Shown here: in pieces, positions 2,892-30,144 of the stretch
How the letters are laid out: each line of letters opens with the position of its first letter
How positions within the stretch are numbered: position 1 is the stretch's first letter
NCBI GenBank assembly: GCA_964588305.1
Contig: CAZPOP010000017.1
Span: 230 to 64,229 of the forward strand
Reading direction: 5' to 3'
Source: an uncultured Ignavibacteria bacterium
Lineage (GTDB): Bacteria > Zixibacteria > MSB-5A5 > SM1-73
Length of the DNA: 64,000 nucleotides
Position numbers and translations under genes: made by a program
Notes under the pieces: generated by a model
What the model was told of the DNA's origin: nothing
The model's input: only the letters and a program-made list of their open reading frames with translations
Database searches by the model: none

Positions 2892-3083
2892 CTGGAGTGT
2901 TCACCTTCCTTCGACCCTTCGACAAGCTCAGGGTGCTGAGCGAAGCCGAAGCACAAGCTCCCTTCGGGTCTGAGCCTCAAGGTCGAAGACAGGACGGTGA
3001 GCAAAGTCGAACCGTTAGGTGAACCTATAAGAGTTGATTGTTTTTCAAGAGGTTTTAGGTCAAGCTGAAGCTTGACACTCCAG
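2892..3083 (+). repeat. Structured palindromic repeat family, copy A (5' arm GGAGTGTTCACCTTC ... GGTGAACC ... 3' arm GGTCAAGCTGAAGCTTGACACTCCAG)
   Basis: Outer stem GGAGTGT/ACACTCC, inner perfect palindrome GTCAAGCT-GA-AGCTTGAC. The same arms recur at 13535, 21706 and 30119. Flanked by further IRs TCTCTGA/TCAGAGA at 2862..2886 and 3107..3122. Confidence 0.7.
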
Positions 3084-3302
3084 GAAAACCTTTGTTGATT
3101 CGACTTTTTCAGAGATCTCTGAGATTCTCCTTGACGCCACCTCCTTCTGACCTTTCTTAGAAGAAAGATTCTTAGAGATGGTACGTTGTGTCGAAGGACA
3201 ATATTGAGGAGAGGAAGGGACGACCAAAAGCGGGATTGTCTCGATAATCTCGTTTTATCCTCCGGACCTCTAACCCAAATTACCGTTGATAGGAGGTGTG
3301 GC

Positions 3303-3515
3303 ATGAAGTACGGAGCCAGAAATCAGTTAGTCGGGAAGGTGAAGGAGATCAAGAGGGGCACGGTGATGAGTCAGATCAGACTAGACATTCCCGCTGATTC
3401 ATCGGTGAGCTCGGTCATGACAATAGACTCGCTGGACGAGTTGGGCATTAAGGAGGGCGATAAAGTGAGGGTGGTCATAAAGGCAGTGAACGTGTTATTG
3501 GTTAAGGAGGAGTAA
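3303..3515 (+). CDS. Mop/TOBE-domain molybdate-binding protein (about 70 aa)
   Basis: Internal start 'MKYGARNQLVGKVKEIKRGTVMSQIRLDIPADSSVSSVMTIDSLDELGIKEGDKVRVVIKAVNVLL' matches the Mop/TOBE fold pattern (SARNxL.G.V......G....V.L..G..L...IT..S...L.L..G..V...IKA..V). Strong AGGAGGTG RBS directly upstream of the ATG at 3303. Confidence 0.6.
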   Translation: MKYGARNQLVGKVKEIKRGTVMSQIRLDIPADSSVSSVMTIDSLDELGIKEGDKVRVVIKAVNVLLVKEE

Positions 3516-3647
3516 GGAAGCGGATAATTGCGGAGGTGCATATCTGAGGAAGCGGGGCGGGAGCCCAGATTCGCGCGCAGGTACACTGAGCCAGGGTCCA
3601 AGAGACGACCAGCGGTCGCTTTGACAAGATCATGAGGAATTCGGCAG

Positions 3648-5768
3648 CTATTCCGCTGTGAATCCACCTACCCAATCCGGCTGAGGGGGCCTTTGGCTTT
3701 CCTTGCCCATCTTTTGCCATTTCTCGTCTGTCAGGCGATCGTCCAAGGGGTGCTTGAATTCGTAATATGAAAACACGCCTCCGCGACACAGCCTTTTGCC
3801 TTTGGCGTCCTCAACTATGACGAAGATATCAAACGGGGAGCCGACACCTTCCTCAAGAACCTGTTTCGTATTGAGATCGGTATGAACGTCAGCTATAAGG
3901 TCCATCCGTTCATCGGCGCCGGACGTTATTTTTTGCATGATTTCCGGGGAGAAGCGTTTCAGTGAAGCCAGCTTTTCACCAATATTCCAAATAAGCTCAT
4001 ACTCCTCGTCACTCAGGATTTTGCAGTCAAGCTCCTTTTCGGATATCGCTTTTAGCTTGGCTAAGATATTCTCAAAGGATTTTAGCTTCTCATGTACACC
4101 TTCAGGTGCAATGCCCAGCGTGTCGAGATTATCCCTTAAGTCTCTCATCATCTCTTCTAATCGTCCATAGACTTCAGGATAGGGTTCGACATAGCCAAAG
4201 GTAAGTTCAGGTCTTGAGGGCATTCCAGTGGCCACCATGGGATAGCTTTGTTTTGCATACAGGATGACGTCGTGCCTTAATTCTGCCCAGGAGCCGAGCG
4301 TGGTTTGCAGCTCCTTGTCGGTCCAGGCCGTGCTCTGCATGAACTCAGGTGCGCTATCTTCTTTGTCCTCTTCCAGAAGCGGTAATAAACAATATAACCA
4401 TCTGAAGTAGAGATTCTGTTTCCAATCCTGGGCAGTCAAAGAGGAAAACTCTTGTTTCAGCTTGTTCAGTTGTTCATAGTAGTATTCATATTCCGTATCC
4501 CCATCCTTCTCCAAGATTTCCAACGCTCTCTTTGATCCAAGCACGGCGAGTATATCCAAACCACGCGGGAATGCTCTGCCCGGTCCCCGATTTACGATGA
4601 TTTCCATGGTAAAGGGCTTTTGATTACCCGTATACCTCAAAATTTCCACCGTGTCCTTCCTTCCGAAAACCAATTCCTGAAACATATATGAATCGGGAAT
4701 AAACCTTTGGCCCATGAATCTGAAACCTTTTGTCGTGACTGCAAATTCCCCATCCTCAACAAAAGCCGCACCCGAGAGAATTCTTGGAGGTCTCAGTTCT
4801 GCCGCCCGATCAATGAATTCCGACAACCTGCTTCTATCACCATATGCATCGACCGCACCGCCGGCGGGGAATATCTCGTTGAGAAGTTCCATGTAATCAT
4901 CAGCATGCAGATCGTCGGTTTTTCCGACAAAATATAACGTCGGTTCATATATCTCCTTCCAAAGCCGGTAAGCTTCCTGATCTTTTCTAAGAGCATCGGT
5001 CATCAGGAGGGCTTGAAGGGTCATCATCCGGCCGTGGGATGCGGCCTCTTCAGTTTTGCCGGGTTTGAGTTTGAAATCGATTCTTCCATACCACATCATG
5101 GCCTTGAAATAACTTTTGAACTTCTCGTTTCTGGTGTAATGACCCCTGGGAAGGTACTGGCTGTAATCTTCAAGCGCGTAGATAGCCGGGGTCTTCACGT
5201 ATGTCAGAAGCTCTCTGGGTCTTAGACCCTCATGCTCCTCAATGTTCCTGATTTCCTTAGCTACAATATCTTCCAACTCATATCCAACATGGTAATCAGG
5301 ATCAAACGACCTTTTGGCAACGGTAAAAAACCCAATGTTTAGTCTTGCTGCTTCCTTAACGTCCGCATTTGTTGCCTGGTTATACTGCTGGATCGATAGA
5401 TCGATCATTCTGTCGGTAAGCTCCGAGGCTTTATCATAAAGCTTCTCTATCTCCAGGATTCGCAAAAGGTAATCGAAGAATATATGGGACGTGTGCAGAA
5501 CGGCGTCTGTCGTGACAAAGATTGGCTGTCTGCGTTTCTTACACTCTCTATATACATCGAATATCTCTTTTTCACGCCCCGGAGTGACGACGAAGCCATT
5601 CTGTTTTAGGTACTCTTTGGCCTCATCCGGGAGATGAAAGTATTGAAAAGAATCTTCCAAGCCCTGAAACGAAAAGCCCTGTGCTTTGGCCTCGTTTGCA
5701 CCTCCGCTTGAAACTATCTGAAACAAGCAGATTAGAAGGACGTTAGAGCATAGAATCAGCCTTTTCAT
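3648..5768 (-). CDS. Large secreted protein of unknown function (possibly DUF3160-like), with N-terminal signal peptide
   Basis: ORF 3648..6128. Start placed at the internal ATG at 5768 (MKRLILCSNVLLICLFQIVSSGGANEAKAQG, signal-peptide-like), which is preceded by a GGAAGGAAG RBS. 707 aa with no recognisable catalytic motif. Confidence 0.5.
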   Translation of the reverse strand: MKRLILCSNVLLICLFQIVSSGGANEAKAQGFSFQGLEDSFQYFHLPDEAKEYLKQNGFVVTPGREKEIFDVYRECKKRRQPIFVTTDAVLHTSHIFFDYLLRILEIEKLYDKASELTDRMIDLSIQQYNQATNADVKEAARLNIGFFTVAKRSFDPDYHVGYELEDIVAKEIRNIEEHEGLRPRELLTYVKTPAIYALEDYSQYLPRGHYTRNEKFKSYFKAMMWYGRIDFKLKPGKTEEAASHGRMMTLQALLMTDALRKDQEAYRLWKEIYEPTLYFVGKTDDLHADDYMELLNEIFPAGGAVDAYGDRSRLSEFIDRAAELRPPRILSGAAFVEDGEFAVTTKGFRFMGQRFIPDSYMFQELVFGRKDTVEILRYTGNQKPFTMEIIVNRGPGRAFPRGLDILAVLGSKRALEILEKDGDTEYEYYYEQLNKLKQEFSSLTAQDWKQNLYFRWLYCLLPLLEEDKEDSAPEFMQSTAWTDKELQTTLGSWAELRHDVILYAKQSYPMVATGMPSRPELTFGYVEPYPEVYGRLEEMMRDLRDNLDTLGIAPEGVHEKLKSFENILAKLKAISEKELDCKILSDEEYELIWNIGEKLASLKRFSPEIMQKITSGADERMDLIADVHTDLNTKQVLEEGVGSPFDIFVIVEDAKGKRLCRGGVFSYYEFKHPLDDRLTDEKWQKMGKESQRPPQPDWVGGFTAE

Positions 5769-6063
5769 AAAGTCTTCCTTCCATTTTGAGGTTGACCCTT
5801 CCTTTTTATATCCTATACAATTTTGATACGGATATATTCCCTGCCACGACCAAGTTTTAATGAGACAACAGATGGTCGGGGTCCGGGCCGACTTCGTGCC
5901 GCACTTCGTCCTGCCCTTCGCCCGGTGCCCCGGTCTGCCCTCCATAGGCGGGTAAACTTGGCAGACCGGGTATATCCGTGACCTAGCTTCAATGAGGGGG
6001 TGGTTGGTAGCCGTCCATATGGATGCGGCAGAAACCGAAAAAAATGCGAAAACTCCACCGTTG

Positions 6064-6117
6064 CCATTTATGGTGAGCGAAGTGAACCATTCATGGTGAC
6101 CGAAGAGAACCATAAAA
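6064..6117. repeat. Tandem 23-bp direct repeats (CCATTTATGGTGAGCGAAGTGAA / CCATTCATGGTGACCGAAGAGAA / CCATAAAATAAC) in a divergent intergenic region
   Basis: Seen directly in sequence, immediately 5' of a TTGACA-N15/16-TATAAA promoter-like element. Confidence 0.6.
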
Positions 6118-6121
6118 TAAC

Positions 6122-6149
6122 TTGACATTGGAGAGGATCACCTATAAAT
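6122..6149 (+). promoter_or_regulatory. Sigma70-like promoter (TTGACA-N15/16-TATAAAT) upstream of the restriction-modification operon
   Basis: cttgacattggagaggatcacctataaattt. Confidence 0.45.
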
Positions 6150-6265
6150 TTACTTATTGATTTACAGAGTCAAGATACCAAGAGAAGTCAGGAGCACGGG
6201 CCTCCTAACCTAAACGGCTATCGAAAAGACCTTAATCGTTAATGAAAAGAAGGTAGAATCCCCTT

Positions 6266-7135
6266 ATGGCAGAACTCTGGAACAAAGAGGTTGAGAAGAC
6301 ATTCTTTACCGAATCCTTTAAATTCGCCACCCCAGAGCAGTTGTTCTATGTTACCGATAAAAATCGATATCTCGCCTATTGGCCCAAAGGTTACGAAAGC
6401 AAGAAAAGCACGCTTCAGAGCAGAAATTCACTAATCGGGAGCTTTACTGAGAAATGGACAACGGATCTAATCCAAGAGGCGGTCAAGGAGAAGGGATTGT
6501 TTGCTGTGCAAGGTGCAATCTGTGACGAGATTGCCTTGACAAATATGTCCCCTGCAGATGTTGTCATTTCAAAGAAAAAGAATGTCAATCAGCAGCCAGA
6601 GGATATCTTGGCCATAATTGAAGTAAAGATGTCCATCGTATGGAACTGGGAATTGCTCAATGGCAAGTTATTGTCTTGCATCGGAGATTATAAGACACAT
6701 CAAGGCAATCCCGGCCTTCTACGTTCCGATTCAATGTTGAAGGCCATCGGCAAGAGCATTAACATAAGAGTTTCGAGCTTCAAGGCTGCTACGATCCCTA
6801 TTATTGTGATGGGCAACACACCTATCACAAACAGCTATTATCCGAAGGTTGACCATCTAAAGGTTGCCGGTATTATACAAGGCTTCTGGTCTGCGAACCC
6901 GAAGCCGTTGGATGACAATGGCGAGAATATAAAGAAGACCGAAAAACAGGCATTCTACAGGTTTGATCATTTTGAAGAACTAAGGAATGCCTTTAGTGTT
7001 TTGCTGTCAGAAGAGATGAACTTCTTTTCCACCATGAAAAGCAAAAAAGAGTTGGGTAAGATCATTGAGACTGCAAATCGTCAAGAAACATACGAAAAGA
7101 AAGCCTCGGTATTCCTCAAACTTATCAAGGAATAA
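6266..7135 (+). CDS. Putative type II restriction endonuclease (PD-(D/E)xK-like)
   Basis: Sits immediately upstream of a DNA methyltransferase gene on the same strand, 6 bp apart. Contains a 'SPAD...(about 20 aa)...IIEVK' motif compatible with PD-x(n)-(D/E)xK. AT-rich relative to its neighbours. Confidence 0.5.
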   Translation: MAELWNKEVEKTFFTESFKFATPEQLFYVTDKNRYLAYWPKGYESKKSTLQSRNSLIGSFTEKWTTDLIQEAVKEKGLFAVQGAICDEIALTNMSPADVVISKKKNVNQQPEDILAIIEVKMSIVWNWELLNGKLLSCIGDYKTHQGNPGLLRSDSMLKAIGKSINIRVSSFKAATIPIIVMGNTPITNSYYPKVDHLKVAGIIQGFWSANPKPLDDNGENIKKTEKQAFYRFDHFEELRNAFSVLLSEEMNFFSTMKSKKELGKIIETANRQETYEKKASVFLKLIKE

Positions 7136-7141
7136 CAAGAG

Positions 7142-8107
7142 ATGAAAGTAAATAAATTCAGACGAGATGGAACAAAAACAAGTTCTTTTGGGACACCGGG
7201 GCGTGTCAATCATGATTCCTCGGAGTTTTACGACAGTAAAATGTATGCTGGTAAGCATCCTCCTGAAAGAGTTAAGTTTATTGAGAACCATATCCCGGCT
7301 AAGAATCTCGACAAAATCTATTGCAAATCAAGTGAAGTAATGGAGGACGTACCTGATCACAGTATCCACCTGATGGTTACTTCGCCACCATACAATGTCA
7401 AGAAGGAGTACGATAAAGACCTTTCCCTTGATGAATACAAAGCATTGCTAAAGAGGGTGTTCGCAGAGACTTACAAAAAGCTTGTAACAGGCGGAAGAGC
7501 TTGCGTTAATGTGGCTAATCTCGGCAGAAAGCCCTACATACCGCTTCATGGCTGCATCATTGAGATCATGCTTGAACTCGGCTATCTGATGCGCGGTGAA
7601 ATCATTTGGAACAAGGCATCAAGCGCTAGCCCTTCCACAGCATGGGGGAGCTGGCAGTCAGCCGCAAACCCTGTATTACGGGACATTCACGAATATATTC
7701 TGATTTTCTCAAAGGAATCATTTTCAAGAAAACGTAGCCACAAAAAAGATACCATTAGCAAAGAAGAATTCCTCGAGTGGACAAAAAGCGTTTGGACTTT
7801 CCCAGCGGTGTCAGCCCGCAGCGTCGGTCATCCTGCCCCTTTTCCAGAAGAATTGCCCCACCGTTTAATCCAGCTGTATACTTTCAAGCAAGATGTTGTC
7901 TTAGACCCGTTTTGCGGCAGTGGGACCGCTTGTGTTGCTGCACTGAAGGACGGGAGGCATTACATTGGATATGATATTGAGTCTGAGTATGTGAGATTAG
8001 CAACTCAAAGAATCGCGGCTTACTCAAGTCAGAAATCCTTATTTGAATACGAAAGACCTTCCCCAACTATGAATCCAAACGAAGAGCGGCCACAGCAAAG
8101 CATGTAG
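7142..8107 (+). CDS. Beta-class amino DNA methyltransferase (N4-cytosine or N6-adenine; SPPY motif IV precedes FxGxG motif I)
   Basis: Motif IV 'LMVTSPPYNV' lies upstream of motif I 'VLDPFCGSGTACVAA'. This order is typical of beta-class MTases such as M.PvuII and M.BamHI. Confidence 0.8.
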   Translation: MKVNKFRRDGTKTSSFGTPGRVNHDSSEFYDSKMYAGKHPPERVKFIENHIPAKNLDKIYCKSSEVMEDVPDHSIHLMVTSPPYNVKKEYDKDLSLDEYKALLKRVFAETYKKLVTGGRACVNVANLGRKPYIPLHGCIIEIMLELGYLMRGEIIWNKASSASPSTAWGSWQSAANPVLRDIHEYILIFSKESFSRKRSHKKDTISKEEFLEWTKSVWTFPAVSARSVGHPAPFPEELPHRLIQLYTFKQDVVLDPFCGSGTACVAALKDGRHYIGYDIESEYVRLATQRIAAYSSQKSLFEYERPSPTMNPNEERPQQSM

Positions 8108-8114
8108 AATTTAC

Positions 8115-8324
8115 GTGTTGCCTCAGGAGCTTACTTTTCCCGGACAGGGAATCATGGCGACTGGCGCCATTAAAGAACACGGATTTTGTTTCATTATGCG
8201 CTTCGAGATCTTCTCCAAAATTCTCAGCCAAACAACCATCAAAACTTCCCTCGATGAATATGGGACCGAGGATTTAGAGGAGATGCAGCAAAACTGCCAA
8301 GAAACAATGCATGAGCTATTTTAG
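8115..8324 (+). CDS. Hypothetical small protein
   Basis: ORF only, downstream of the R-M pair. No recognisable motif. Confidence 0.25.
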   Translation: MLPQELTFPGQGIMATGAIKEHGFCFIMRFEIFSKILSQTTIKTSLDEYGTEDLEEMQQNCQETMHELF

Positions 8325-8329
8325 CATTT

Positions 8330-8536
8330 ATGAGTAAGTACGACCAGCTTAGGGCCTTAATAAGAAGAAGGGCCAGAACATCCCACATATGTGCGTGTTG
8401 TGGTCGACCAATTGAATCAAACGAATTTTACTATTCGGAAGAGCTAAATCAAAGAATCAACGTGTTCTTTAAGAAGAGAAGTTTTTGTGAGCCGTGCTAC
8501 GAACAGTCCGGTGACAAGTTGTTGGCCCTGAAGTAA
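8330..8536 (+). CDS. Small hypothetical protein with CxxC...CxxC zinc-ribbon-like cysteines
   Basis: 'ICACCGRPIES...FCEPCYEQ'. ORF followed by a hairpin at 8598..8623. Confidence 0.35.
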   Translation: MSKYDQLRALIRRRARTSHICACCGRPIESNEFYYSEELNQRINVFFKKRSFCEPCYEQSGDKLLALK

Positions 8537-8597
8537 TATTAGTTAATGCGTCAGGTCTGCTGCGCACCTGACCCTGTTAACTGGTTGAGTTTTATAG

Positions 8598-8623
8598 TTC
8601 AAGCATAGCGCAGCCTGCTTGAC
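8598..8623. terminator. Hairpin TTCAAGCAtagcgcagccTGCTTGAC (copy 1 of a 26-bp palindromic element), 3' of the small ORF at 8330..8536
   Basis: Near-identical reverse-complement copy at 36386..36411 between two convergent genes. No clean U-tract. Confidence 0.35.
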
Positions 8624-8766
8624 AAATCCTCTTATTTCCCACCTCCACGCTAGGAAAGCAAAATCACCCCAACTTTGATGGTGATGCCGATACCCCGCAC
8701 GTATATGAGAGACCAAATACGGGTTTTGTAGACAAATCCTCTATTCTGGCGGAAAGGATATTTCAT

Positions 8767-9309
8767 ATGAACGGTCTGATCGATGCTACCCCTGAATCTA
8801 CCCGAAGAGAAGAGCCTGACGATTTGCAGCTCGTAGAAACACTGATCGACAGGATCATTAAGAGATTGGAAGAGAACACCTTTCAGCCAAAAGTCCAGGA
8901 TGTCTTAAGAGCTATTCAACTCAAGCAGAAGTTGAGCGAAGCGAAATCCGGAGGACCGGATAAAACTTCTGAGGCCGAAAAAAAGTTTTGGCAGGAAATA
9001 GACGAGATAAGAAAGTCCGAATCGGAAAGGTTAGAGAATCTGGAAAGCCAAACAGAAAATCTCCAGGCTCAAGTCCTAAAGAACATGCTCCGGCTCAAAT
9101 ATGAAGTGAAAAACGGTTTGCTTCCGGTGAAGACCATCACCGACGCTCTTAATCAAGAAAAATCCAGGGAACACCGGTTTACTTATCAGCGGATTGGCAG
9201 GCTCCTTACCACCATGGGATTTCAGAAGGCAAGAGCCGGAAACAATTCCGCCATCCTATGGAACGAAGACCAGATCGATCGAATGTTCGAGATTTTTTCT
9301 TCGGGATAA
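8767..9309 (+). CDS. Hypothetical protein (acidic, coiled-coil-like N-terminus; basic C-terminus)
   Basis: 180-aa ORF with AGGA-like RBS. No recognisable family. Confidence 0.4.
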   Translation: MNGLIDATPESTRREEPDDLQLVETLIDRIIKRLEENTFQPKVQDVLRAIQLKQKLSEAKSGGPDKTSEAEKKFWQEIDEIRKSESERLENLESQTENLQAQVLKNMLRLKYEVKNGLLPVKTITDALNQEKSREHRFTYQRIGRLLTTMGFQKARAGNNSAILWNEDQIDRMFEIFSSG

Positions 9310-9621
9310 CACACGAAAGGCACGAAAGCCACGAAACACACGCGGTCGTCGTGGCTATTCCTTTGTGCTGTTTCAACTTAAGAAAGAGAATAGATGACTG
9401 AAGGAATTTTTCAAAAAACACGAGAAACGCAAGAAACACAAGAAACACAACCTCTCAACCCCGCGTTGGTCGGGGGTCACCTTCCCGGTGAATCCCTTCA
9501 GCATGAACCCTGCCCTATGAGTGATAAGTTCTTGTAGCCCATAGGGGCGGGAATTCATCCCGTCCCCAAGCGGAACTTTTTTAACACCCCCTTACGCTCC
9601 GCTCCTACGTTGTGCTGCTTC

Positions 9622-11583: not shown

Positions 11584-13482
11584 CTATTGCTTTGATTTTT
11601 CCACGAACCTGATAACTCCGTCGCAGATGGCCTGGGCACATTTTCTCTGGAATTTCTCGGTGCGGAGAAGTTGCTCTTGTTCGGGAATCATCATGAAGGC
11701 GCACTCAACCAATACCGCTAAGAGCTGGCTGGGTCGGGTCAAGACCAGGTTTCCATAATAGACTCCGTAATCTGGCAGCTGCAGTTTCCTCAGCAACTCT
11801 CTCTGAATCTCTTTGGCCAGGGCCAGGGATTGAGGGTGGTAATAATATGTGCTGGTTCCGTTATTGTAAAAAGGATTTATCCCATCGGGAAGGGCATTGT
11901 TATGGACGCTGATCAGGATGTCGCAGCCTTCTTCGATGGCAATTTTGGGGCGATCGTAAAGAGCCAAGCTGTCCATCCAGCTGCGCGTCATGATGACTTC
12001 TGCGCCATTCTTCTCCAGGATACTCTTCAGCTCTTTGGCTATCTCCAAATTGACAACCTTTTCCTCCAGGCCGGTAGGCCCAACAGCACCAGGATCAGGA
12101 CAATGCCCTGGATCCACGGCGATTTTCAGACCTTCAAGTTTTTTCTTCAGCCTGGGCTGATCCTTTATCTCCAGTATCAAGGCGCTCCCCTCATAGAAAA
12201 CATCATACCCCCAGTGTTGTTCCAAGTTCAGATAGACCTTGAGCTGGTACACCTCATCCTTAGGCTGAGCCCACTGTATCTCTTTGATCACCTGGTCTGC
12301 AAGATCGTACCTAATCCAATCCGTGTTGGAGGTAACTCCATAAATGGTCAAGAACAAGGCGGGCGGCTTTGTTTTCTGCTCAACTCTGAAAGGCAGTTTT
12401 TCCTGGAGGAAAATCCGGAGCTGTGTTTTTCTGTCTTCTGTTTGTGTTCGCATGGAAGTCAGAAAACTTTTGGGAATGGATGTGCCCAAAGGCAGATATT
12501 TTATGCTATCTTCGCGAACCCATGCATTCTCTCCTTCAGCCAACTTCAACCGCACCCACTCCCCGATCCTTCCGGTTGCAACCGCTCTTATGCCGGGCGG
12601 TTGGTACAAGAGAAGATAGCCTAGTTTGGGACCGGATCGGGCAATGAGGGAGGAACCTGTAAACTCCACTATTTGTGGAGTCTGATCTTGTCTTATGGTG
12701 ATTCTGCTTTGAGACGTATCGGTGATGACGTTCGTGCTGTCGTCATTCTTCCTGGACAATTGGAATACAATTCTGACACTATCGATTTGGTCTGTATTTT
12801 TTATGATATAAGAACCGGTGTACACTCCTTTGAGGAAAAGCTTTTCCGGCACCAGGCCCTTTCCAAATACCTCTTTTCCCCAGTAGGGCTGTCTTTTGGG
12901 AGGTGCTTCGGTCATGGGAATATCCGAAATCAAACCCTCTATGGAAAAAGAAGCCTGGCAGTCAGGAGTCCCTCTGAATTTTATCTCCAATACGTCACCT
13001 GCGGTTAAGATCATGTCTTTGTTGGGAGATACGCTTCCCTTGACGATACAGAAACTGTCTTCGGGCACGGAGAGAATGGGCTCAGGCACTTTCACTTTCA
13101 GTCGTTTAGTGGAGATGCCTGCCTTATTCGAAGCGATCAATTCAAAAACGAAGTTCCTCCCGCCTTCGGCGGGACTTTCAGCGGGCTCGAGTGGGAGGAA
13201 GGCTAAGAAAGCCCCGTTCGGATGGACTTTCACCTTGAATCCGTTTATTCTCAATTCCGATTCGGGAGCCACGGACCCAAAAATGAAGGTAGAATCGGAG
13301 ACGCCAATTCTGGCGCCCTCTTTGGGATAGATTACCGATATTTCGGGGAGCGAATCCTCTTCGGTGGCAGCGTCAATTCTTGTGTCTTCGCCCGACACAA
13401 GCGATAGAAAAACAATTATGGGAATAAAAAAAACAAAAGCTAGCTTTTTGCTAATCATCTTTTTCCTCTTGGTAGCCTGCAT
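11584..13482 (-). CDS. N-acetylmuramoyl-L-alanine amidase (Amidase_3 family) with long N-terminal extension
   Basis: C-terminal domain 'KIAVDPGHCPDPGAVGPTGLEEKVVNLEIAKEL...ILISVHNNA' matches the Amidase_3 (AmiC-like) zinc-ligand pattern. N-terminal signal/TM segment 'MISKKLAFVFFIPIIVFLSLVSG'. Confidence 0.8.
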   Translation of the reverse strand: MQATKRKKMISKKLAFVFFIPIIVFLSLVSGEDTRIDAATEEDSLPEISVIYPKEGARIGVSDSTFIFGSVAPESELRINGFKVKVHPNGAFLAFLPLEPAESPAEGGRNFVFELIASNKAGISTKRLKVKVPEPILSVPEDSFCIVKGSVSPNKDMILTAGDVLEIKFRGTPDCQASFSIEGLISDIPMTEAPPKRQPYWGKEVFGKGLVPEKLFLKGVYTGSYIIKNTDQIDSVRIVFQLSRKNDDSTNVITDTSQSRITIRQDQTPQIVEFTGSSLIARSGPKLGYLLLYQPPGIRAVATGRIGEWVRLKLAEGENAWVREDSIKYLPLGTSIPKSFLTSMRTQTEDRKTQLRIFLQEKLPFRVEQKTKPPALFLTIYGVTSNTDWIRYDLADQVIKEIQWAQPKDEVYQLKVYLNLEQHWGYDVFYEGSALILEIKDQPRLKKKLEGLKIAVDPGHCPDPGAVGPTGLEEKVVNLEIAKELKSILEKNGAEVIMTRSWMDSLALYDRPKIAIEEGCDILISVHNNALPDGINPFYNNGTSTYYYHPQSLALAKEIQRELLRKLQLPDYGVYYGNLVLTRPSQLLAVLVECAFMMIPEQEQLLRTEKFQRKCAQAICDGVIRFVEKSKQ

Positions 13483-13534
13483 GAAGTATGCTACGTGAGA
13501 TCTCCGAAAAAGTCAGATCAGGATGAGAGAATTT

Positions 13535-13617
13535 GGAGTGTCAAGCTTCAGCTTGACCTTGAAATCCTCAAGAAGCTTGGAACTCCTGTTTGGTTCACCT
13601 GAAGGTGAACACTCCAG
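13535..13617 (-). repeat. Structured palindromic repeat family, copy B (reverse orientation), in the 139-bp gap between epimerase and amidase genes
   Basis: Reverse complement reads CTGGAGTGTTCACCTTCAGGTGAACC...GGTCAAGCTGAAGCTTGACACTCC. Confidence 0.7.
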
Positions 13618-13621
13618 TCTA

Positions 13622-14626
13622 TCAACTCTCCTTGGGCATAACACCCAATCCTGGTGAATCAGAAAGATAAAGTCTTCCTTTCTCCAGTCTTACCCCGACG
13701 TAAGGATCATTGGTCAACAGAAGATTTCCATCCAAATCCAGAAAGTCCACTAAAGAACCAATATGGGCGGCAGCGGTGATGCCCACTGAGCTTTCGATCA
13801 TGCATCCGATCATAACCAACAGATCGTGCGCCCTTGCCACGTGGATCATCCTTAAGGCTTCCCGGATTCCTCCACATTTCGCCAGCTTGATGTTTATCCC
13901 ATCACACAACCCCACAAACTGCAAAACATCTTTTGAGGTCATAAGATGCTCATCTATTATAATCGGAACGTCCACATTCTTTTTGATCTTTTTCAATCCC
14001 TCTTTGTCCTGTGGGTCTATCGGCTGTTCCACGAACTCGATGTCGTATTCCTTCAGCTGACTGATCTTCTCGATAGCTTCGTCGCCCGTCCACCCTGCAT
14101 TTGCATCCACTCTGATCTTAGCATCGGTTGTCTCCCTTACCGCTTTAACCATTTCGATATCGTTTTCCACACCCACCTTGACTTTGTAGATCAAAAAACC
14201 CTTTGCTTCTTTGGTCTTCTCCTTCATTTTCTCCGGCGTGTCGATTCCTATGGTATAAGAAGTAACTAATGGCACTTTTCCATTGAGTCCAAGAAGTTTG
14301 TAAAGCGGAACTCCCAGCCTCTTCCCCATTAAATCATGAAGAGCCATGTCGATGCTTGCTTTAGCAGAGAAATTCCCGGTGATTTTTTCATTCAGTTTTG
14401 AAAGAATGAGTTCTATCTGGAATGGATCGTCTCCAAGCTGGTCTTTCACCTTTTCCAGAGACTCGATCACAGTGTCCGCATTTTCGTTATAATATTCTGA
14501 TGGAGCCGCTTCGCCAATTCCTTCATCAATGTTCACAATAACATTCCTCTTAACTTGAGCTACCGAACGGGAGATTCGGAAGGGATGCTTGAGTTCAAGA
14601 TCGATGGTGTGATAAGTTAGGTGCAT
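13622..14626 (-). CDS. Enolase-superfamily dipeptide (L-Ala-D/L-Glu) epimerase-like enzyme
   Basis: MLE-subgroup signatures: KxK 'LIYKVKVG', metal ligands 'RVDANAGW', 'FVEQP', 'IIIDEH', and second Lys 'NIKLAKCGG'. Adjacent to a murein amidase, consistent with peptidoglycan peptide recycling. Confidence 0.6.
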   Translation of the reverse strand: MHLTYHTIDLELKHPFRISRSVAQVKRNVIVNIDEGIGEAAPSEYYNENADTVIESLEKVKDQLGDDPFQIELILSKLNEKITGNFSAKASIDMALHDLMGKRLGVPLYKLLGLNGKVPLVTSYTIGIDTPEKMKEKTKEAKGFLIYKVKVGVENDIEMVKAVRETTDAKIRVDANAGWTGDEAIEKISQLKEYDIEFVEQPIDPQDKEGLKKIKKNVDVPIIIDEHLMTSKDVLQFVGLCDGINIKLAKCGGIREALRMIHVARAHDLLVMIGCMIESSVGITAAAHIGSLVDFLDLDGNLLLTNDPYVGVRLEKGRLYLSDSPGLGVMPKES

Positions 14627-20074: not shown

Positions 20075-20102
20075 TTGACAAGACGGGTTTTGTGTTTATA
20101 TT
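20075..20102 (+). promoter_or_regulatory. Sigma70-like promoter for rpsT (TTGACA-N16-TATATT)
   Basis: ttgacaagacgggttttgtgtttatatt, about 20 bp upstream of the S20 ORF. Confidence 0.5.
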
Positions 20103-20120
20103 CAAGAGTCGACATGTAGC

Positions 20121-20414: not shown

Positions 20415-20476
20415 CAGGTTTGTTCCAAAATCGGCCATTTTCTCTTTTTGTCGAGATTGGAATATAGATCTACACC

Positions 20477-21658: not shown

Positions 21659-21705
21659 CTCTGATTTAGAAAGACCTCCGAAAAACCATCCCAAGAAGGC
21701 GGATT

Positions 21706-21788
21706 GGAGTGTTTACCTTTAAGACAACCCTGCATAAGCTTTTTGTCTTTCGAGGGCTTAAAGGTCAAGCTGAAGCTTGACACTCCAG
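21706..21788 (+). repeat. Structured palindromic repeat family, copy C, between ferredoxin and geranylgeranyl reductase genes
   Basis: GGAGTGTTTACCTTTAAG...CTTAAAGGTCAAGCTGAAGCTTGACACTCCAG, with compensatory inner stem ACCTTTAAG/CTTAAAGGT. Confidence 0.7.
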
Positions 21789-21815
21789 CAAAATCCTCGT
21801 CCGAAAGGCCATCTC

Positions 21816-22022
21816 CTACCTGCTCTTCCCGAGGGTTATCTCCTCGGGAGTGTCGGTCATTCTCAGCGCTCCTACCGGACAGAAAACTACGCAGTTTTGG
21901 CAAAGTGTGCACAAGTCCGGTTTGATTAAGAGTCCTGAGACAAAAAGCTCCAAAGCTTGATGCGAACAGACCGCCACGCAGCCCCCGCATTGTCCGCACA
22001 GTTTTGGCTCTACTTCCAGCAT
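21816..22022 (-). CDS. 2[4Fe-4S] ferredoxin
   Basis: Two CxxCxxCxxxC(P/S) motifs: 'CGQCGGCVAVCS' and 'CTLCQNCVVFCP'. Confidence 0.8.
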   Translation of the reverse strand: MLEVEPKLCGQCGGCVAVCSHQALELFVSGLLIKPDLCTLCQNCVVFCPVGALRMTDTPEEITLGKSR

Positions 22023-22243
22023 GTTGAGCGTCTTGACGCGAAACAGGTCTCGCTACTTCGGAACTTGGCCTTTTCTATCCATAAAAAATGCTGGGGTAAT
22101 TTAACCCCAGCATTAACGAATATCAAGATGTTTTTTGTGTTAGACTCTATGATGGGGCAGGGATCTGACCCCTGCCCCAACTTATCTGCTAATCCTTGTC
22201 AAATCAACTCCACGGATCCTTCTGATCCGCTCAGTCCGTTGAT

Positions 22244-24058: not shown

Positions 24059-24457
24059 TTGTTTCCTCCCTTTGGTTTAGAGATTTATAAAATCAGCAAA
24101 CTTTCATCAATTAGTCCTTTGTCCCACCTCCTTTTTTGTTTTTAGAGTTTCGCCAAAAGTCACCTATAAAAAGTTTTCCATGAAGTATATGGTTGAGGAT
24201 TTCAAAAAGCAAGAGATTTATCGGCGCAAACTGAAAATAACAATTTCGCGTTTTCTTCAAGACAGGTTCCTGCCCAGCTATCCTCTCCAGCCAGATGGTT
24301 AAGCGTCTGCCCAGGCGCGGAGAGAGACCTGACCACGAGATTTGGCCAAGCCTTATTTGTGTTACATCTTTCTACATGGTATCTTTTGATCCTCTTGTTG
24401 GTATGTTCAAGATCAAATCAAATCCGCTGCATCCGTCCGGGCGTTTGACTCGTTGAC

Positions 24458-27400
24458 CTACTTTAGAAGCACCAGACGTTTTGTCTCTTTGACCTCACCG
24501 ACCTTCAACTGGTAGAAGTAGATGCCAGTGGATAGGTCATTGCCTTTTTCGTCCGTTCCGTCCCATCTGATGCTCTGGAGACCTGCCTGGCTGCGTCCCT
24601 TCACGAAGGTTTTCACCTTCTGCCCCAGAACGTTGTAAATCGCCAAGCTGACCTCAGCCGGCCTTCGCAGATCGAACTTGATCAGGGTCTCGGCGTTGAA
24701 TGGATTGGGGAAGTTTTGATAAAGCTCAAAGTCCTTTGGAGTCAGAGCCGCTTCCTCCTCTCCCTCCACTGCGGTGGGCTTGGGACAGATCATTACCGCA
24801 TACTCCACCTCGGTGACAAAGACGTCCATCGCGTCTTTGGGCGCCGCTTTGGTCGCAGCCCTGAATTTGTCCGGAACGTTCATGCCGGAGAATCCACCTC
24901 GGGCCCAGATATAGTCGATTTCCCAGAAAGGATTGCCCGGGCTGGGGAACGGGTTGTCAAGCAGGCTTTGGTACATGTCGTGGGAGACGTAAGTTGAATC
25001 GTTATGCAGTTCAGGCGGATAGAGTCCGGCTCCCGGATGCCACGGAGGTCTGACTCTGCCAGGTCCACCTTCCACTGCCGCATCCCGGTCCGGGTCGCTT
25101 AGGGCAATCTTCAGAGACTCGGAGCATACACCGGCCATGGTGACAAAATGTCCGCGCTCCCTGTGCCACGTTCCCCCGCCCGGACAAGCGGGAAAGCCGG
25201 CGCAGCCAAGAGCATCCGACGTTGGATCCACGCCGCAATCCGGAAATGGGGGAGGCAAGTCGGGACCAGCCATGTAGATATAGTCATAGAGAGCTATGCT
25301 GTCGCCGGAATCCAATACCCCGTCATCGTTAGCATCGGCAGCATCATCGCACGGAAAAGGTGGTCCGGTCAGCCAATAAGTTAAGTCGGCCGTGTCAGTG
25401 ACTCCGTCCTGGTTTAAATCTCCCCGGATGAACTGCTGCGGTTCTCCCTCATACCACCAGAAACCCAAGAGCAGGATGATGTCCTGACACTTCTTGAGCG
25501 AATCCTCCATTTCGAGGAAGTCGGGCATCTCGAAAGTGGATTCCTGGAGGGCAAATGCATAATCCAGGAAATACTGCTCCAGTCCCGCCTGCATGCTGTC
25601 GACGTGCGTTCCCGAGTCGGGGTCGGTTTGAAAGTATCTGGCCAGCGTATCGATCAACTGAGGCGGAGTCCAACCGGGCGGAACTGCATCATACCACCAC
25701 AGGCAGTTGGCTACTGCCGCGGGCCCGCAGTAGGCTATCCATTCGTCCTGATCCTGATCAAAATCGGGCATGCCGCTGGGGGCGTGGGCGGTATCTGGTT
25801 TCCAGTACCAGAGCGAATCGGGCTTCACCAAATGCACCCAGGTGGTGCAATAGTCAGCGGCACCATCCTCGTCGGTCAACCCGTGGATGACCATGTGGGT
25901 ATCGCAAGGGGTGCAGCCGTCAGTGTACCAGGTGATCTCCCAGGTGCCGGATGAAGTTCCCTGTCCTGAGATTCTGGTTATGAAATAGTCGCTGCCGCAG
26001 CCGGGCTGAATGTCAATGGAGGCTTCGTTTTGAATAGAATCCCCGTCCGGATCCGTGCCGGTGATGGTATACTCCACCGCATCGTCCACATTGCCCTCAA
26101 GGAAATCGGGCTGTTCGATCTGGGGCGGGTAATTCGCGTCCGGGTTGGGGCAGATCATGACGGCTGCTTCCACTTCTGTACGCCAATACTCCAAATGCTC
26201 GGGCGCTGCCCTGGTGACGGGCCGGAACCTCTCCGGAACGTTTTTGTTAAAGTATATCAGTGGCTCGTAGCAGTAATCTGCCAGTTCCCATAAGTCGCTG
26301 GCCGGGCTGGGAAATTCCGGGTTAAGCAAGCAGATATAGGCGTCATGGGAGACGTATTGGGTGTCGTTGTGATAGGTGGGGTCGTAACCTCCCCAGGGAA
26401 GGTGCTCTTCCGTTCTGACTCTGCCCGGCCACCAGGAGTACAGTAAACATTGATCCCGATCCGGATCGGATATGGCTACCTCCTTTTTCTCGGAGTTGAC
26501 CCCGGCCATGGTTACAAAATGCCCGCCTTCACGGTACCACTTCGCAGAGTCGTCATCCCACCACCAGAAACCCAGAAGGAGGATGACATCCTGGCAGACC
26601 TTGAGCGAGTCTTCCATCTCGTAAAAGTCCGGCGCCCAATAGGTGGTCTCCTTTAGGGGGAGCAGGTAGTCCTCGAAGTAACTGTCCAGGCCCGCTTGAA
26701 TGGAATCCACGTCGGTGCCAGCAGGGCCGGTGCCGAAGTACCCTGCCAGCAGCTCGATGAACTGGGGAGGCTGCGTTCCTTGCGGGACGGCATCGAACCA
26801 CCAGAGGCAATTTGCCACTGCTGTGGGTCCGCAAAAGGCTGTCCACTCTTCCTGGTTCTGGTCGAAATCGGGCATGCCGCTGGGGGCAGTGGCGGTGTCC
26901 GGCTTCCAATACCATTCTCCGCACTCGGTCTGTTCCTCGCCGCAATATCCACTTATGCCCAGCACGACCCATCCCGGAACGGAAGGTGTCCAAGCCTCAT
27001 ACCACTCCGACCAGGCTGGCTGACCAGACCAGAGCCATTGATAGCAGGTATCGACGGTGACCGTGTCAAAAAACACGCTGGGAATTGAGCCACTCACTCC
27101 GCTCATATACTCCAGATTGAAGAAAAATGGCTTGTCGAGACAGACGGTGTCCGGGAACGAAATTTCTACAGAATCAGGATAGAACGTGGTGATATGGTAA
27201 AGCTGTGATCTCCATATCTCGGTCCCTGGTCCATCGCAAATGTCAGGGCAGACTATCTCCGCACTGAAGCGTACATCCACCTGCCCGCTTCCCGAATAAT
27301 CGTTAAGGTACAACGACACACCAGTCAACTGGAAAGGGTAGTTAGAGGGATTCCCGCAGTCTTCCGGGTCGAAGTATATGGCTACCTTGTCGCCGGATTT

Positions 27401-27622
27401 AAAACCACCCCAGAAATAAACAGGTGTCCAGTTGGTGTGCGACAGCACACAATAGTTTTCCTCGCCGGTTAGGGCCGGAGGTTTGAGAGGGATTATCTTG
27501 TCAGGGGGAATCGGAATCACCTTCCTGGTGGGCATCACCGCGGGCTGTTGAACTGTGGCTGAAGAAAAGGTGATCAGACTTAAGGCCAGGATGCCCAAAA
27601 AACATATTGATCTTTTGTTCAT
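24458..27622 (-). CDS. T9SS-sorted secreted protein with duplicated papain-fold Cys/His domain and internal dockerin insertion (paralog 2)
   Basis: The 'FCGPTAVANCLWW...GGHFVTMAGV' module occurs twice. Between the 'GFWW' and 'GHFVTMAGV' segments of the second copy lies a dockerin-like pair of Ca-binding loops ('GDLNQDGVTDTADLTYWL' and 'DANDDGVLDSGDSIALYDYIYMAG'). T9SS CTD 'YQNFPNPFN...GIYFYQLKVGEVKETKRLVLLK'. Confidence 0.65.
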   Translation of the reverse strand: MNKRSICFLGILALSLITFSSATVQQPAVMPTRKVIPIPPDKIIPLKPPALTGEENYCVLSHTNWTPVYFWGGFKSGDKVAIYFDPEDCGNPSNYPFQLTGVSLYLNDYSGSGQVDVRFSAEIVCPDICDGPGTEIWRSQLYHITTFYPDSVEISFPDTVCLDKPFFFNLEYMSGVSGSIPSVFFDTVTVDTCYQWLWSGQPAWSEWYEAWTPSVPGWVVLGISGYCGEEQTECGEWYWKPDTATAPSGMPDFDQNQEEWTAFCGPTAVANCLWWFDAVPQGTQPPQFIELLAGYFGTGPAGTDVDSIQAGLDSYFEDYLLPLKETTYWAPDFYEMEDSLKVCQDVILLLGFWWWDDDSAKWYREGGHFVTMAGVNSEKKEVAISDPDRDQCLLYSWWPGRVRTEEHLPWGGYDPTYHNDTQYVSHDAYICLLNPEFPSPASDLWELADYCYEPLIYFNKNVPERFRPVTRAAPEHLEYWRTEVEAAVMICPNPDANYPPQIEQPDFLEGNVDDAVEYTITGTDPDGDSIQNEASIDIQPGCGSDYFITRISGQGTSSGTWEITWYTDGCTPCDTHMVIHGLTDEDGAADYCTTWVHLVKPDSLWYWKPDTAHAPSGMPDFDQDQDEWIAYCGPAAVANCLWWYDAVPPGWTPPQLIDTLARYFQTDPDSGTHVDSMQAGLEQYFLDYAFALQESTFEMPDFLEMEDSLKKCQDIILLLGFWWYEGEPQQFIRGDLNQDGVTDTADLTYWLTGPPFPCDDAADANDDGVLDSGDSIALYDYIYMAGPDLPPPFPDCGVDPTSDALGCAGFPACPGGGTWHRERGHFVTMAGVCSESLKIALSDPDRDAAVEGGPGRVRPPWHPGAGLYPPELHNDSTYVSHDMYQSLLDNPFPSPGNPFWEIDYIWARGGFSGMNVPDKFRAATKAAPKDAMDVFVTEVEYAVMICPKPTAVEGEEEAALTPKDFELYQNFPNPFNAETLIKFDLRRPAEVSLAIYNVLGQKVKTFVKGRSQAGLQSIRWDGTDEKGNDLSTGIYFYQLKVGEVKETKRLVLLK

Positions 27623-27945
27623 GTTTTTGACTCCCTAAGTTCAAAATTCGAGGTAAGACTGGTCCTCAGCAATGAGTTTAAGCTGTCATTCATCACCGGA
27701 GATCAACCCAAGTACGAAAGCATAGCTTAAGGCCCTGCTTCCTTTTTTGCTTGAAGTCCTGCCAAAAGTTGCCCAAGAATATCTTCATTTTACGTTTTCA
27801 TTATAATATATCAACGGGAAACTCGGAAGGCAAGGAATTTGTGGGTACAAGAGTTGAAAATCACGCATCTTTGCACTGGCCGACGAATTCATCACTAAGG
27901 TATGGGTGGAAGAAATCCTATCCGCACAGGGTCAATACCGCTTTT

Positions 27946-29850
27946 CTACTTCAACAAGACCATTCGTTTGGTCTGGGTGATCTGGCCAGCCATCAGTTGG
28001 TAGAAATAGATGCCTGAAGGTAAATCCTTGCCCTTTTCATTCTTTCCGTCCCAGCTTACAGTTTTGGCACCTGGCCGCTGGTACTCGTCGACCAACGTTC
28101 TGACCTTCTGCCCCAGAATGTTATACATTACCAGCGATACCGGGCAGGACTTGAATAAGGTATATTTGATCGTCGTTTCGCTGTTGAAAGGATTGGGATG
28201 GTTCTGGAATAGCTGGAAATCTTTGGGAGAGAAAACCTCCTCTTCTTCGTCCACGGCAGTGGACTTAGGACAGATCATGACGGCATATTCCACGACCGCA
28301 TGTACGGGTTCGGAAGGTTCATAGGAGTGAAAATACTCTGTTTGACCGGGCTGGAAGTTCTCTCCTTCGAACCGGCTGAACAGAGAGGTAGTATCATCGG
28401 CATAGAAGTCCTTTATCCTCCAGAGGGTATCCAGGCTATCGCCATAATCGATAACAAACAAAGTGTCTGAGACATAGATATCGTGAGACACATAGAGAGA
28501 ATTGTTGTGAAGCGTATGATCGTCGGGATGAGAGGGGTGTCCCAGAGGGAAGAACCTTCCTTGCCAGGCAAGCTCCGCTCCATCCACCGCAGGATCGCTG
28601 AGTGCAACCCAGGATGACTCCGGGCAAGCACCTGCCAGGGTAACAGCATGGCCCCCGAAACGGTGCCAGGAATCTTCGTAAAATTGCCAAAATCCCAAAA
28701 TGAGAATGATGTTGTGATTCTTTTCCAATGAGTCAGCCGTCTCGCGAAAACTGGGTCGATGGCGGGTGTCCTGGCATAGAGAGAGTCCATATTCGCTGAA
28801 GCAACTGTCTAAGCCGCTCTGAATTGAATCCACTGAAGTTCCACTGTCCGGATCGGTGCCGAAGTAGGTGGACAAAAGTCGGATGAGATCAGGAGGGTCC
28901 GTATCTTGGGGAACTTCATAGAACCACCATAAACAGTTTGCCACAGCAGTGGAAACGTCCAGAGCCGATGAATCGCCGAACTGATACTGGTCAAAATCCG
29001 GCATCCCACTGGGAGCTTTGGAGGCGGTGGGTTTCCAATCCCAACAAGGGTTACAGTCAATAGAATTGGTGTAACCGATTGTTCGCATTATGGGACATCC
29101 TGGAATTGAAGCTCCGGGAGAAGATGGGCCCCAGAACTGGGACCATTCACAGTAGTTCCCATCATAAAGAAACCAGGCCTCGCAGGTATTTGGAAAGTCG
29201 AGGACACTGTCGCTCATGACCAGGCTGGGAAATGGGGGATTGGTTTCACCGGTAAAGATGATCTCTAAAAAAAAGGAATCGGTCAGGCAGCAGGTCGAGC
29301 TTGGATTGGTGAGGGAATCTAAGTCCAAATTAATCGGCCTTCCCAGACTATCGTAACTGGAGTCAATGGGTATGGTGAAGGTCTGGTGATACAAGAGAGT
29401 GCCGGGTTTTCCAAGATCAGGACAGAGGGTATCCAGAGTATCTACTTTCACCTGCCTAATGTTCACCCGAATCTCGACCGGCCAGACGGCGGTAAGCCCA
29501 CCTGCATAATCGTAAAGGTAAAGCCGCACGCCCGTTAGTTTGAAAGGATAGGGATTTGCTCCGGCGCACTTTTCCGGATTCATATATAAGGCGTAACCGT
29601 TGCCCGGAATTGTGTCAGGATAATACCAAGCCAGCGAGTCCTCATCATATTTAATCACACAAAAGCGTTCCCCGCTCACGCCAAAAGTACGGAGAGATTG
29701 CGGTACCCTTTCACCAGCAATCGGAATTGCTTTTATCTTTTGGGCATCAGAATCAGCGGAAGTATGATCTATCCCGAAAGAAAGGAGAAATGCCAAAAGC
29801 GAAAAGAGAAATACTAGTTTTTTGCTCATTTCTTTTTGTGAGATCATCAA
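27946..29850 (-). CDS. T9SS-sorted secreted protein with papain-fold Cys/His domain (divergent paralog 3)
   Basis: 'STAVANCLWWFYEVPQDTDPPDLI', 'GGHAVTLAGACPESSWVALSDPAVDG'. T9SS CTD 'FQNHPNPFN...GIYFYQLMAGQITQTKRMVLLK'. Confidence 0.6.
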   Translation of the reverse strand: MMISQKEMSKKLVFLFSLLAFLLSFGIDHTSADSDAQKIKAIPIAGERVPQSLRTFGVSGERFCVIKYDEDSLAWYYPDTIPGNGYALYMNPEKCAGANPYPFKLTGVRLYLYDYAGGLTAVWPVEIRVNIRQVKVDTLDTLCPDLGKPGTLLYHQTFTIPIDSSYDSLGRPINLDLDSLTNPSSTCCLTDSFFLEIIFTGETNPPFPSLVMSDSVLDFPNTCEAWFLYDGNYCEWSQFWGPSSPGASIPGCPIMRTIGYTNSIDCNPCWDWKPTASKAPSGMPDFDQYQFGDSSALDVSTAVANCLWWFYEVPQDTDPPDLIRLLSTYFGTDPDSGTSVDSIQSGLDSCFSEYGLSLCQDTRHRPSFRETADSLEKNHNIILILGFWQFYEDSWHRFGGHAVTLAGACPESSWVALSDPAVDGAELAWQGRFFPLGHPSHPDDHTLHNNSLYVSHDIYVSDTLFVIDYGDSLDTLWRIKDFYADDTTSLFSRFEGENFQPGQTEYFHSYEPSEPVHAVVEYAVMICPKSTAVDEEEEVFSPKDFQLFQNHPNPFNSETTIKYTLFKSCPVSLVMYNILGQKVRTLVDEYQRPGAKTVSWDGKNEKGKDLPSGIYFYQLMAGQITQTKRMVLLK

Positions 29851-30118
29851 TTATCAAAATCTATTTTCACTCTCTTCTTTGCGTTCGGAGGCGAATCACG
29901 GAGCTTGCCTAATGATTATACAATCGTCCTCTTACAAAAACAAGGGATTTTCTGCGGTCGGTAAAAACAAAAATGAGATGGATCGTGACGAATAGTGCTG
30001 GTCGACAGGTTTTTCGGGTGGGGTAGTTCCTTCCGACGATAAGCCGATCTGCAAAAGGAAGCGGCTCAGGTTCCGGACAATGTAAAGTCAGAGAGAATCA
30101 CTCAACACCTGTCTCTCA

Positions 30119-30144
30119 GGTCAAGCTGAAGCTTGACACTCCAG
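30119..30144 (+). repeat. Structured palindromic repeat family, copy D (3' arm only; partial)
   Basis: Exact GGTCAAGCTGAAGCTTGACACTCCAG, preceded by a TCAGAGAGA...TCTCTCAGG IR. No GGAGTGT 5' arm. Confidence 0.55.

Follow-up and report, generated by a model that had tools for sequence, protein, structure and literature searches.

A family of GGAGT-tagged palindromic repeats with REP/BIME-like architecture in an uncultured member of the Zixibacteria

Repetitive extragenic palindrome (REP)-type repeats have been studied mostly in Proteobacteria, where they are tied to GTAG tags and to REP-associated tyrosine transposases (RAYTs). Here we describe a previously undescribed family of short intergenic repeats, the GGAGT family, found in a 64,000-nucleotide stretch of DNA from an uncultured bacterium of the Zixibacteria (contig CAZPOP010000017.1 of assembly GCA_964588305.1; this whole stretch is called the window). 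In architecture, placement, and behavior the family matches REPs and bacterial interspersed mosaic elements (BIMEs), but its tag is not GT[AG]G and no REPtron, a transposase gene flanked by its own repeats, was found for it in the loci examined. We consider it probable that the family is REP/BIME-like and that its units are handled as single-stranded hairpins by a trans-acting enzyme. A search of the searchable literature for the core sequence as text found no paper.

RESULTS

The repeat unit and its covarying stem

A unit is made up of an unpaired GGAGT tag and a hairpin with a TTYA loop and a 7-bp stem that begins with G and ends with C; the predominant sequence is GGAGT-GTCAAGC-TTCA-GCTTGAC. 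An initial annotation of the window had described a 5' and a 3' arm recurring at four sites, and both arms were indeed found there. The 23-mer GTCAAGCTGAAGCTTGACACTCC occurs exactly at 3059-3081 (+), 13535-13557 (-), 21764-21786 (+), and 30120-30142 (+), which we call copies A to D; shuffled sequence gave an expectation of 0 for these four occurrences in 64 kb. The 5' arm, GGAGTGTTCACCTTC, is exact at 2894 (+) in copy A and at 13601-13615 (-) in copy B and has two mismatches in copy C, at 21706 (+). Copy D had been read as a 3' arm only, and it is a solo core hairpin from which the 5' arm is absent. A scan of the 64 kb with a covariance model of the unit found five intact units and two decayed partner arms, and no more, so that the window holds four elements, or seven units.

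The core had been presented as an 8+2+8 palindrome; a palindrome it is, but it is better divided into a 7-bp stem and a 4-nt loop. Read on the opposite strand, the 3' arm is the dominant unit, and the 5' arm is GGAGT-GTTCACC-TTCA-GGTGAAC, the same tag with a second hairpin. The two ends of an element are the same kind of unit, on either strand, and the full element is therefore an inverted pair of units with a linker of ∼35 nt; its outer inverted repeats measure 9 bp. Single strands fold to a three- or four-way junction equally well from either strand, with z-scores of -3.2 to -4.3. The foot GGAGT is constant by virtue of the search anchor; of 105 copies, 69 have an A directly after ACTCC on the opposite strand. 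An inverted partner unit lies 2 to 100 nt away in 49 of 107 copies, the inverted pairing seen in BIMEs and in REP doublets (REPINs); more copies have decayed partners, and half of the copies are single arms.

Covariation in the hairpin stem, which the initial annotation had put forward as a check, is strong. Among the 107 copies the partner stem varies between lineages with full compensation, taking the forms GTTCACC/GGTGAAC, GTCAAAC/GTTTGAC, GCCAAAC/GTTTGGC, GTTAGCC/GGCTAAC, GTGAACC/GGTTCAC, and GCTCGGC/GCCGAGC. A noncircular sample was drawn by taking every GGAGT-N7-TTYA in 778 kb, with no pairing demanded, and comprised 79 distinct sequences. At least six of the seven positions pair in 64 of these, with more than 20 different stems. 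In this alignment 81% of cells are paired, versus 54% in shuffles, and the covariation score of 0.647 (versus 0.19) was matched by none of 500 shuffles; controls with a slid register were 24 to 43% paired. Double changes occur at all seven stem pairs. The 23-nt unit is, in short, a palindrome of the REP sort whose stem is kept by compensatory change.

Gain, loss, and arm constraint at orthologous junctions

Copy C lies between a ferredoxin gene and a geranylgeranyl-reductase-like (GGR-like) gene. Position and orientation of the element at this junction are shared by four metagenome relatives (GGR amino acid identity, 73 to 75%), and six further relatives (61 to 67%) have a short, element-free gap. 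The relatives at loci L102 and L099 have the same linker as L100, but their core hairpin ahead of the GGR start has changed from GTCAAGC-TTCA-GCTTGAC to GTCCCGC-TTTA-GCGGGAC; three compensated pairs changed together, which suggests templated swapping of hairpins and not stepwise mutation. In L099 the other hairpin also carries an extra member of the family within its loop.

Copy B occupies the gap between genes for a dipeptide epimerase and an N-acetylmuramoyl-L-alanine amidase. One relative (L121; epimerase identity, 86% in the search table and 85% in the codon alignment) has the element at an identical boundary, TGATAG-A-YTGGAGTG. Another (L120, 88%) has a single hybrid unit, two (L118 and L119, 89%) have a GTAG-type REP in place of the element, and in L122 to L124 (78 to 81%) there is nothing. 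The element site is dynamic at the genus scale.

The arms evolve differently from their surroundings. Between copy B and L121, 48 of 50 arm bases are identical, versus 63% of fourfold sites in the adjacent gene (P = 4e-8); the linker is ∼50% identical. Between copy C and the element of L100, all 26 of 26 arm bases are identical, versus 59% of fourfold sites (P = 1e-6). The arms, once an element is present, are thus held by selection or by conversion restricted to the arms.

Placement and orientation

Long open reading frames (ORFs) are avoided, with 101 of the 107 copies lying outside them, and ∼20% of copies lie within 25 nt of a stop codon. Some host ORFs, namely, those of the ferredoxin in L100 and L101 (∼2395-2500) and of the epimerase in L120 (∼3490-3525), stop inside or just after the hairpin; they read into the element and use its stop, and insertion has therefore replaced the native C terminus.

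Elements occur in tandem, convergent, and divergent gene contexts, and convergent junctions are modestly commoner than in the background (13/70 versus 48/472). In tandem contexts, 9 solo units have the same orientation as the genes and 12 the opposite one; for full elements the numbers are 16 and 14. Single mismatches in the stem are G:T in 5 cases and A:C in 8, favoring neither strand as RNA. Among the neighboring genes the only enriched families were generic ones, proteins with a type IX secretion system (T9SS) sorting tail and response regulators, and no transposase family was enriched near the copies. The setting is not that of integron attC sites, which follow each short promoterless cassette of an array: the flanking genes encode housekeeping or secreted proteins of 300 to 1,000 amino acids in conserved operons, and an integrase gene was not specifically searched for.

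Distribution across genomes

Further copies lie well beyond the window. At least 98 stretches of 8 kb from species-representative genomes contain the exact 23-mer, and the matches listed include 25 species-level metagenome-assembled genomes (MAGs), whose taxon names are given here as deposited, with up to ∼15 copies per MAG among those matches.

MAGs with the exact 23-mer, among the matches listed:
Zixibacteria, 10
Ignavibacteria, 5
Calditrichota, 3
Cytophagia, 2
Deltaproteobacteria, 1
Unclassified, 4

These labels cover at least four phylum-level groups. By these labels the 23-mer is not lineage specific, unlike the repeats of REP/REPIN-RAYT systems; the partner hairpin, in contrast to this core, is. 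No match to the 23-mer was found in 2.9 million viral contigs.

Among loci L005, L037, L051, L058, L061, L091, and L093, from the Calditrichota MAG Dive96_bin3.89, and L098, L068, and L009, the 23-mer sits within a composite repeat of 270 to 450 nt that coincides with contig ends or, in other contigs, the unit forms short tandem arrays with periods of 54 to 204 nt. The composite repeat of the Calditrichota MAG was considered as an insertion sequence (IS) and rejected, being just 270 to 450 nt long and without an ORF.

Search for a cognate transposase

The initial annotation had suggested looking for a cognate REP-associated tyrosine transposase. All ORFs of the element-bearing loci (about 800 kb) and of the window were searched with E. 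coli RayT by phmmer, which gave one Y1 transposase gene, a RAYT of 170 amino acids in locus L008 (Zixibacteria SM23_73_2). This gene has doublets of GTAG-GTCGAGAT-TCCA-ATCTCGAC to either side and so forms a canonical REPtron (4632-5267 of L008), but of a different repeat. With 120 homologues as queries, tblastn detected no additional Y1 gene in the element-bearing loci. Seven RAYT loci were also fetched (L112 to L116, L125, and L126); five Y1 homologues of 52 to 63% identity (P0002, P0007, P0009, P0019, and P0069) are flanked by GTAG-type REPs and not by GGAGT units. Since the Y1 genes examined are flanked by GTAG REPs, a classical REP-RAYT system is present in these genomes, and the GGAGT family is separate from it. 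The GTAG-GTCGAGAT type of REP is kept across RAYTs that are only 52 to 63% identical.

GTAG REPs often adjoin GGAGT units (L011, L021, L077, and L121), and the same intergenic sites therefore attract both. Translations of the genes bracketed by two GGAGT units read as M50 protease-like, TolB-like, LpxB-like, isochorismatase-like, and Dxr-like proteins, a cupin, and a polyferredoxin.

The copies in the window

All four copies in the window are intergenic and both orientations are represented, as the initial annotation had it. Their parts, and those of the motifs associated with them, are as follows.

2892-3083 (+): copy A, an inverted dimer with outer CTGGAGT/ACTCCAG
2899-2905 and 3018-3024: GTTCACC and GGTGAAC, the partner hairpin of copy A, split by a nested repeat
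2908-3016 (+): nested, unrelated palindromic repeat of 109 nt in the loop of the copy A partner hairpin
3025-3058: linker of copy A
3059-3076: core hairpin of copy A, GTCAAGC-TGAA-GCTTGAC, followed by ACTCC at 3077-3081
13534-13617 (-): copy B, an intact inverted dimer
13535-13539 (+ strand) and 13615-13611 (- strand): GGAGT tags of the two copy B units
21705-21788 (+): copy C, with the core unit intact at 21764-21786 and the partner hairpin collapsed at 21706-21730
30119-30144 (+): copy D, a solo unit with the core hairpin and ACTCCAG only
2859-2873 (-): tail TTTTTCAGAGACCTC, 20 nt outside the left end of copy A
3105-3119 (+): tail TTTTTCAGAGATCTC, 23 nt outside the right end of copy A
13497-13511 (-): tail TTTTTCGGAGATCTC, 23 nt outside the core-hairpin end of copy B
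21671-21685 (-): tail TTTTTCGGAGGTCTT, 20 nt outside the partner-arm end of copy C

Two copies had been placed within presumed operons, and this is where they are. Copy B starts 4 nt past the stop codon of the epimerase gene (13622-14626, -), whose relatives at 78 to 100% identity are named Candidatus Zixiibacteriota, and ends 52 nt ahead of the first ATG (13482) of the amidase ORF (11584-13482, -); a second ATG, 27 nt further in, has a better ribosome-binding site. Copy C lies between the stop of the ferredoxin gene at 21816 (21816-22022, -; 68 amino acids, two [4Fe-4S] clusters) and the start of the GGR-like gene at 21664 (-). Copy A is flanked by a C25 peptidase gene (227-2605, -) and a small TOBE-domain gene (3303-3515, +), and because of the latter its surroundings are a divergent intergenic region. 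The TOBE-domain gene encodes 70 amino acids (Pfam E = 1e-13) and is concealed within a longer ORF started by TTG. The neighbors of copy D are a 305-amino-acid ORF of no assigned family and a gene whose product carries a T9SS sorting tail.

The repeat nested in copy A belongs to a family of its own, CCTTCGACAAGCTCAGG...GGTGAGCAAAGTCGAACC, which translates as peptides of the PFDKLRV type and is not part of the GGAGT family. It interrupts the GTTCACC hairpin in its loop, at TT^TA, and marks that loop as an insertion target; a 40-nt relative lies at the identical junction in L050 (4858-4897). The same family occurs in L080, L094, L087, L077, L099, and L016, and the window repeat itself contains another nested piece. 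A resemblance of a copy A segment to the repeats flanking a DUF559 insertion, proposed earlier, was not reproduced: no second copy of the nested segment was found in the window with up to three mismatches or by short-word BLAST.

A tail motif, TTTTTCRGAGRYCTC, lies 20 to 24 nt outside each good element end and nowhere else in the window. It contains a small AGAG..CTCT palindrome and goes with element ends in one subfamily, where a longer imperfect palindrome takes in the outer tails. In the window all four good tails face gene starts; across other loci they face 8 starts and 7 ends. The possibility that the tail is an outward promoter was rejected as a general explanation, given these numbers and a sigma-70 promoter scan that found nothing.

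Long ORFs change strand, from minus to plus, between ∼28000 and ∼31700 of the window, where cumulative GC skew is also lowest; all four elements are on the minus-gene side of this switch. No cluster of DnaA boxes was found near the switch at 30 kb, and no tRNA or tmRNA gene was found in the window.

DISCUSSION

How the units may be maintained

The earlier suggestion of a mobile structured element like a REP or a miniature inverted-repeat transposable element (MITE) is supported by a family that is dispersed and extragenic, occurs in both orientations and as solo units and dimers, has covarying stems, varies in presence, and hosts nested repeats. In the mechanism we favor, a trans-acting enzyme specific for both structure and tag would recognize the units as hairpins on single-stranded DNA. 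Its model would be an HUH/Y1 tyrosine transposase of the RAYT type. Such an enzyme would copy or maintain units in intergenic DNA, often directly past stop codons, and its action would account for near-invariant arms beside drifting linkers. Where hairpins are co-transcribed within operons, as those of copies B and C may be, they would be expected to block 3' exonucleases or to mark processing sites, like the REPs of E. coli.

Several observations weigh against a REP/BIME-like family served by such an enzyme. The tag is neither GT[AG]G nor CGTC, and an exact 23-mer across several phylum labels is not typical of REP-RAYT systems. Most copies look old, as linkers have diverged within one genome; neither recent, identical copies of full length nor, at the boundaries inspected, a target-site duplication could be seen. 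No Y1 gene flanked by GGAGT units was found among L008 and the seven fetched homologue loci, a small sample, and no REPtron of GGAGT units was found, the genes bracketed by two units being ordinary housekeeping genes. The intact arms could be explained equally well by host selection in situ.

We tentatively entertain a further proposal, that the GGAGT hairpin is the recognition element of a new trans-acting factor conserved across these lineages, which could be a Y1/HUH enzyme class guided by a new sequence or else a non-transposase protein of the host. In that case the repeats would be long-lived, vertically maintained, and under purifying selection at individual loci, and they would add to the REP-like elements a third tag class, served by machinery of its own.

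Alternative explanations

The main rival is a host-selected binding or structural signal that is not mobile DNA, a site for a conserved host protein such as a nucleoid, topoisomerase, or RNA-processing factor, with spread a rare event. At orthologous sites the linkers drift but conservation of the arms far exceeds the neutral rate, as expected of such a signal, and the identity of the 23-mer in MAGs labeled as several phyla and its absence from viral contigs fit as well. This rival stays alive because the arm constraint is strong and no associated transposase was found. We nevertheless think it rather doubtful: presence differs among close relatives at the same junction, where other repeat types substitute for the element, and stems are swapped wholesale between relatives. 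The neighboring genes share no common function, either orientation is used in tandem, convergent, and divergent contexts, and composite forms break assemblies as mobile repeats do.

A conventional MITE, that is, a deletion derivative of an IS with a DDE transposase, ending in terminal inverted repeats CTGGAGTGT...ACACTCCAG and moving by cut and paste with target-site duplication, is an unlikely source. The 9-bp outer inverted repeats, the longer imperfect palindrome that includes the outer tails in one subfamily, a size of 85 to 280 nt, and presence/absence polymorphism are all in its favor. However, single arms make up half of the copies, a target-site duplication was not visible at any inspected boundary, and no transposase-bearing parent between such ends was found in the loci examined. 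The conserved part is moreover a hairpin with a covarying stem, which is not how DDE-type inverted repeats evolve.

A small structured or cis-regulatory RNA (ribozyme, riboswitch, or attenuator), transcribed from one strand, had been offered as the other reading of the elements. The fold is good, with a multihelix junction, and one helix covaries, but both strands fold equally well and the linker is not conserved. The lack of orientation bias with respect to genes, together with the balance of G:T and A:C mismatches (5 and 8), argues against a strand-specific RNA. Rfam 15 gave 0 matches over the whole window at gathering scores, and a permissive scan around copy B (E up to 10) gave chance-level matches only; no promoter-like or terminator-like site was found at the elements. 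An RNA of this kind is thus very improbable.

Finally, an assembly artifact, chimeric joins at an adapter-like sequence, is hardly conceivable, for although some short contigs end at the repeat, as contigs are expected to do at any multicopy sequence, the element keeps its boundaries within conserved gene pairs across independent assemblies, which differ in project and assembler and include long contigs, and these orthologous operon loci refute it.

Significance

The GGAGT family presents the REP architecture in uncultured Zixibacteria and in MAGs labeled Calditrichota and Ignavibacteria, with differences in the tag, in the identity of the core across distant genomes, and in the constraint on the arms. 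It offers a clean test case of whether a dedicated enzyme or host selection keeps such repeats in place. The repeat also has practical consequences: it breaks metagenome assemblies, yields spurious ORFs with peptides such as VKLKLDTP or WSVKLQLD, and can provide stop codons for adjoining genes.

Comparison with known systems

The Correia elements of Neisseria (CREE/NEMIS) are abundant intergenic inverted repeats of 100 to 150 nt that are co-transcribed and shape mRNA processing. They have 26-bp terminal inverted repeats and a TA duplication, form no solo hairpin units, and are restricted to the genus. The GGAGT elements are likewise intergenic and built on inverted repeats, but they occur as solo units and are not restricted to a genus. 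Palindrome elements of the IS200/IS605 type, with subterminal hairpins on the same strand at both ends and a TnpA(Y1)/TnpB parent, also differ, since the GGAGT hairpins are inverted and not direct and no TnpA was found associated with them in the element-bearing loci.

The closest likeness is to the REP, BIME, and REPIN elements of E. coli and Pseudomonas. In both cases a short stem-loop with a covarying stem has an unpaired, conserved tag at its foot, and units occur alone or as inverted dimers with variable linkers; a single dimer may combine two hairpin subtypes, as with the Y and Z REPs of E. coli. Both are extragenic, mostly between genes running in the same direction or converging, and in both the loops serve as targets of other insertions. 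The GGAGT family differs in its tag, GGAGT instead of GT[AG]G, in the lack of a flanked Y1 gene among those found, and in a 23-mer core that is identical in MAGs labeled as several phyla; published abstracts describe REP-RAYT systems as lineage specific and inherited vertically. The GTAG REPs and their RAYT are a separate system that coexists with the GGAGT family in the same Zixibacteria.

Most REPs in published surveys fall into GTAG- or CGTC-tagged superfamilies (PMC3733652), and a GGAG-type tag is not reported in that survey. CGTC-tagged REPs occur in Chlorobi, Bacteroidetes, and other phyla without a known dedicated transposase (Di Nocera et al. 2013, PMC3733652). The GGAGT units resemble them as tagged palindromic repeats that have no known transposase of their own, but the tag and the hairpin are different. 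Canonical RAYT-associated REPs carry an unpaired 5' GT[AG]G at the hairpin foot, and atypical structures flank Y1 genes of subclass 2.6, mostly from Bacteroidetes, and of class 3 (PMC6006769). Among the REPs tabulated there (Table S1; Quentin et al. 2018, PMC6006769) are some with a GG[AC]GTG foot, a 7-bp stem, and a 3-nt loop, found beside the Y1 gene ABY36092.1 of Chloroflexus aurantiacus. Their stem, CGGCAGC-CAT-GCTGCCG, is a different one and the phylum is another, but like the GGAGT units they have a foot, GGAGTG or GGCGTG, followed by a 7-bp stem and a short loop. There is therefore a precedent for a Y1 enzyme with a GGAGTG foot.

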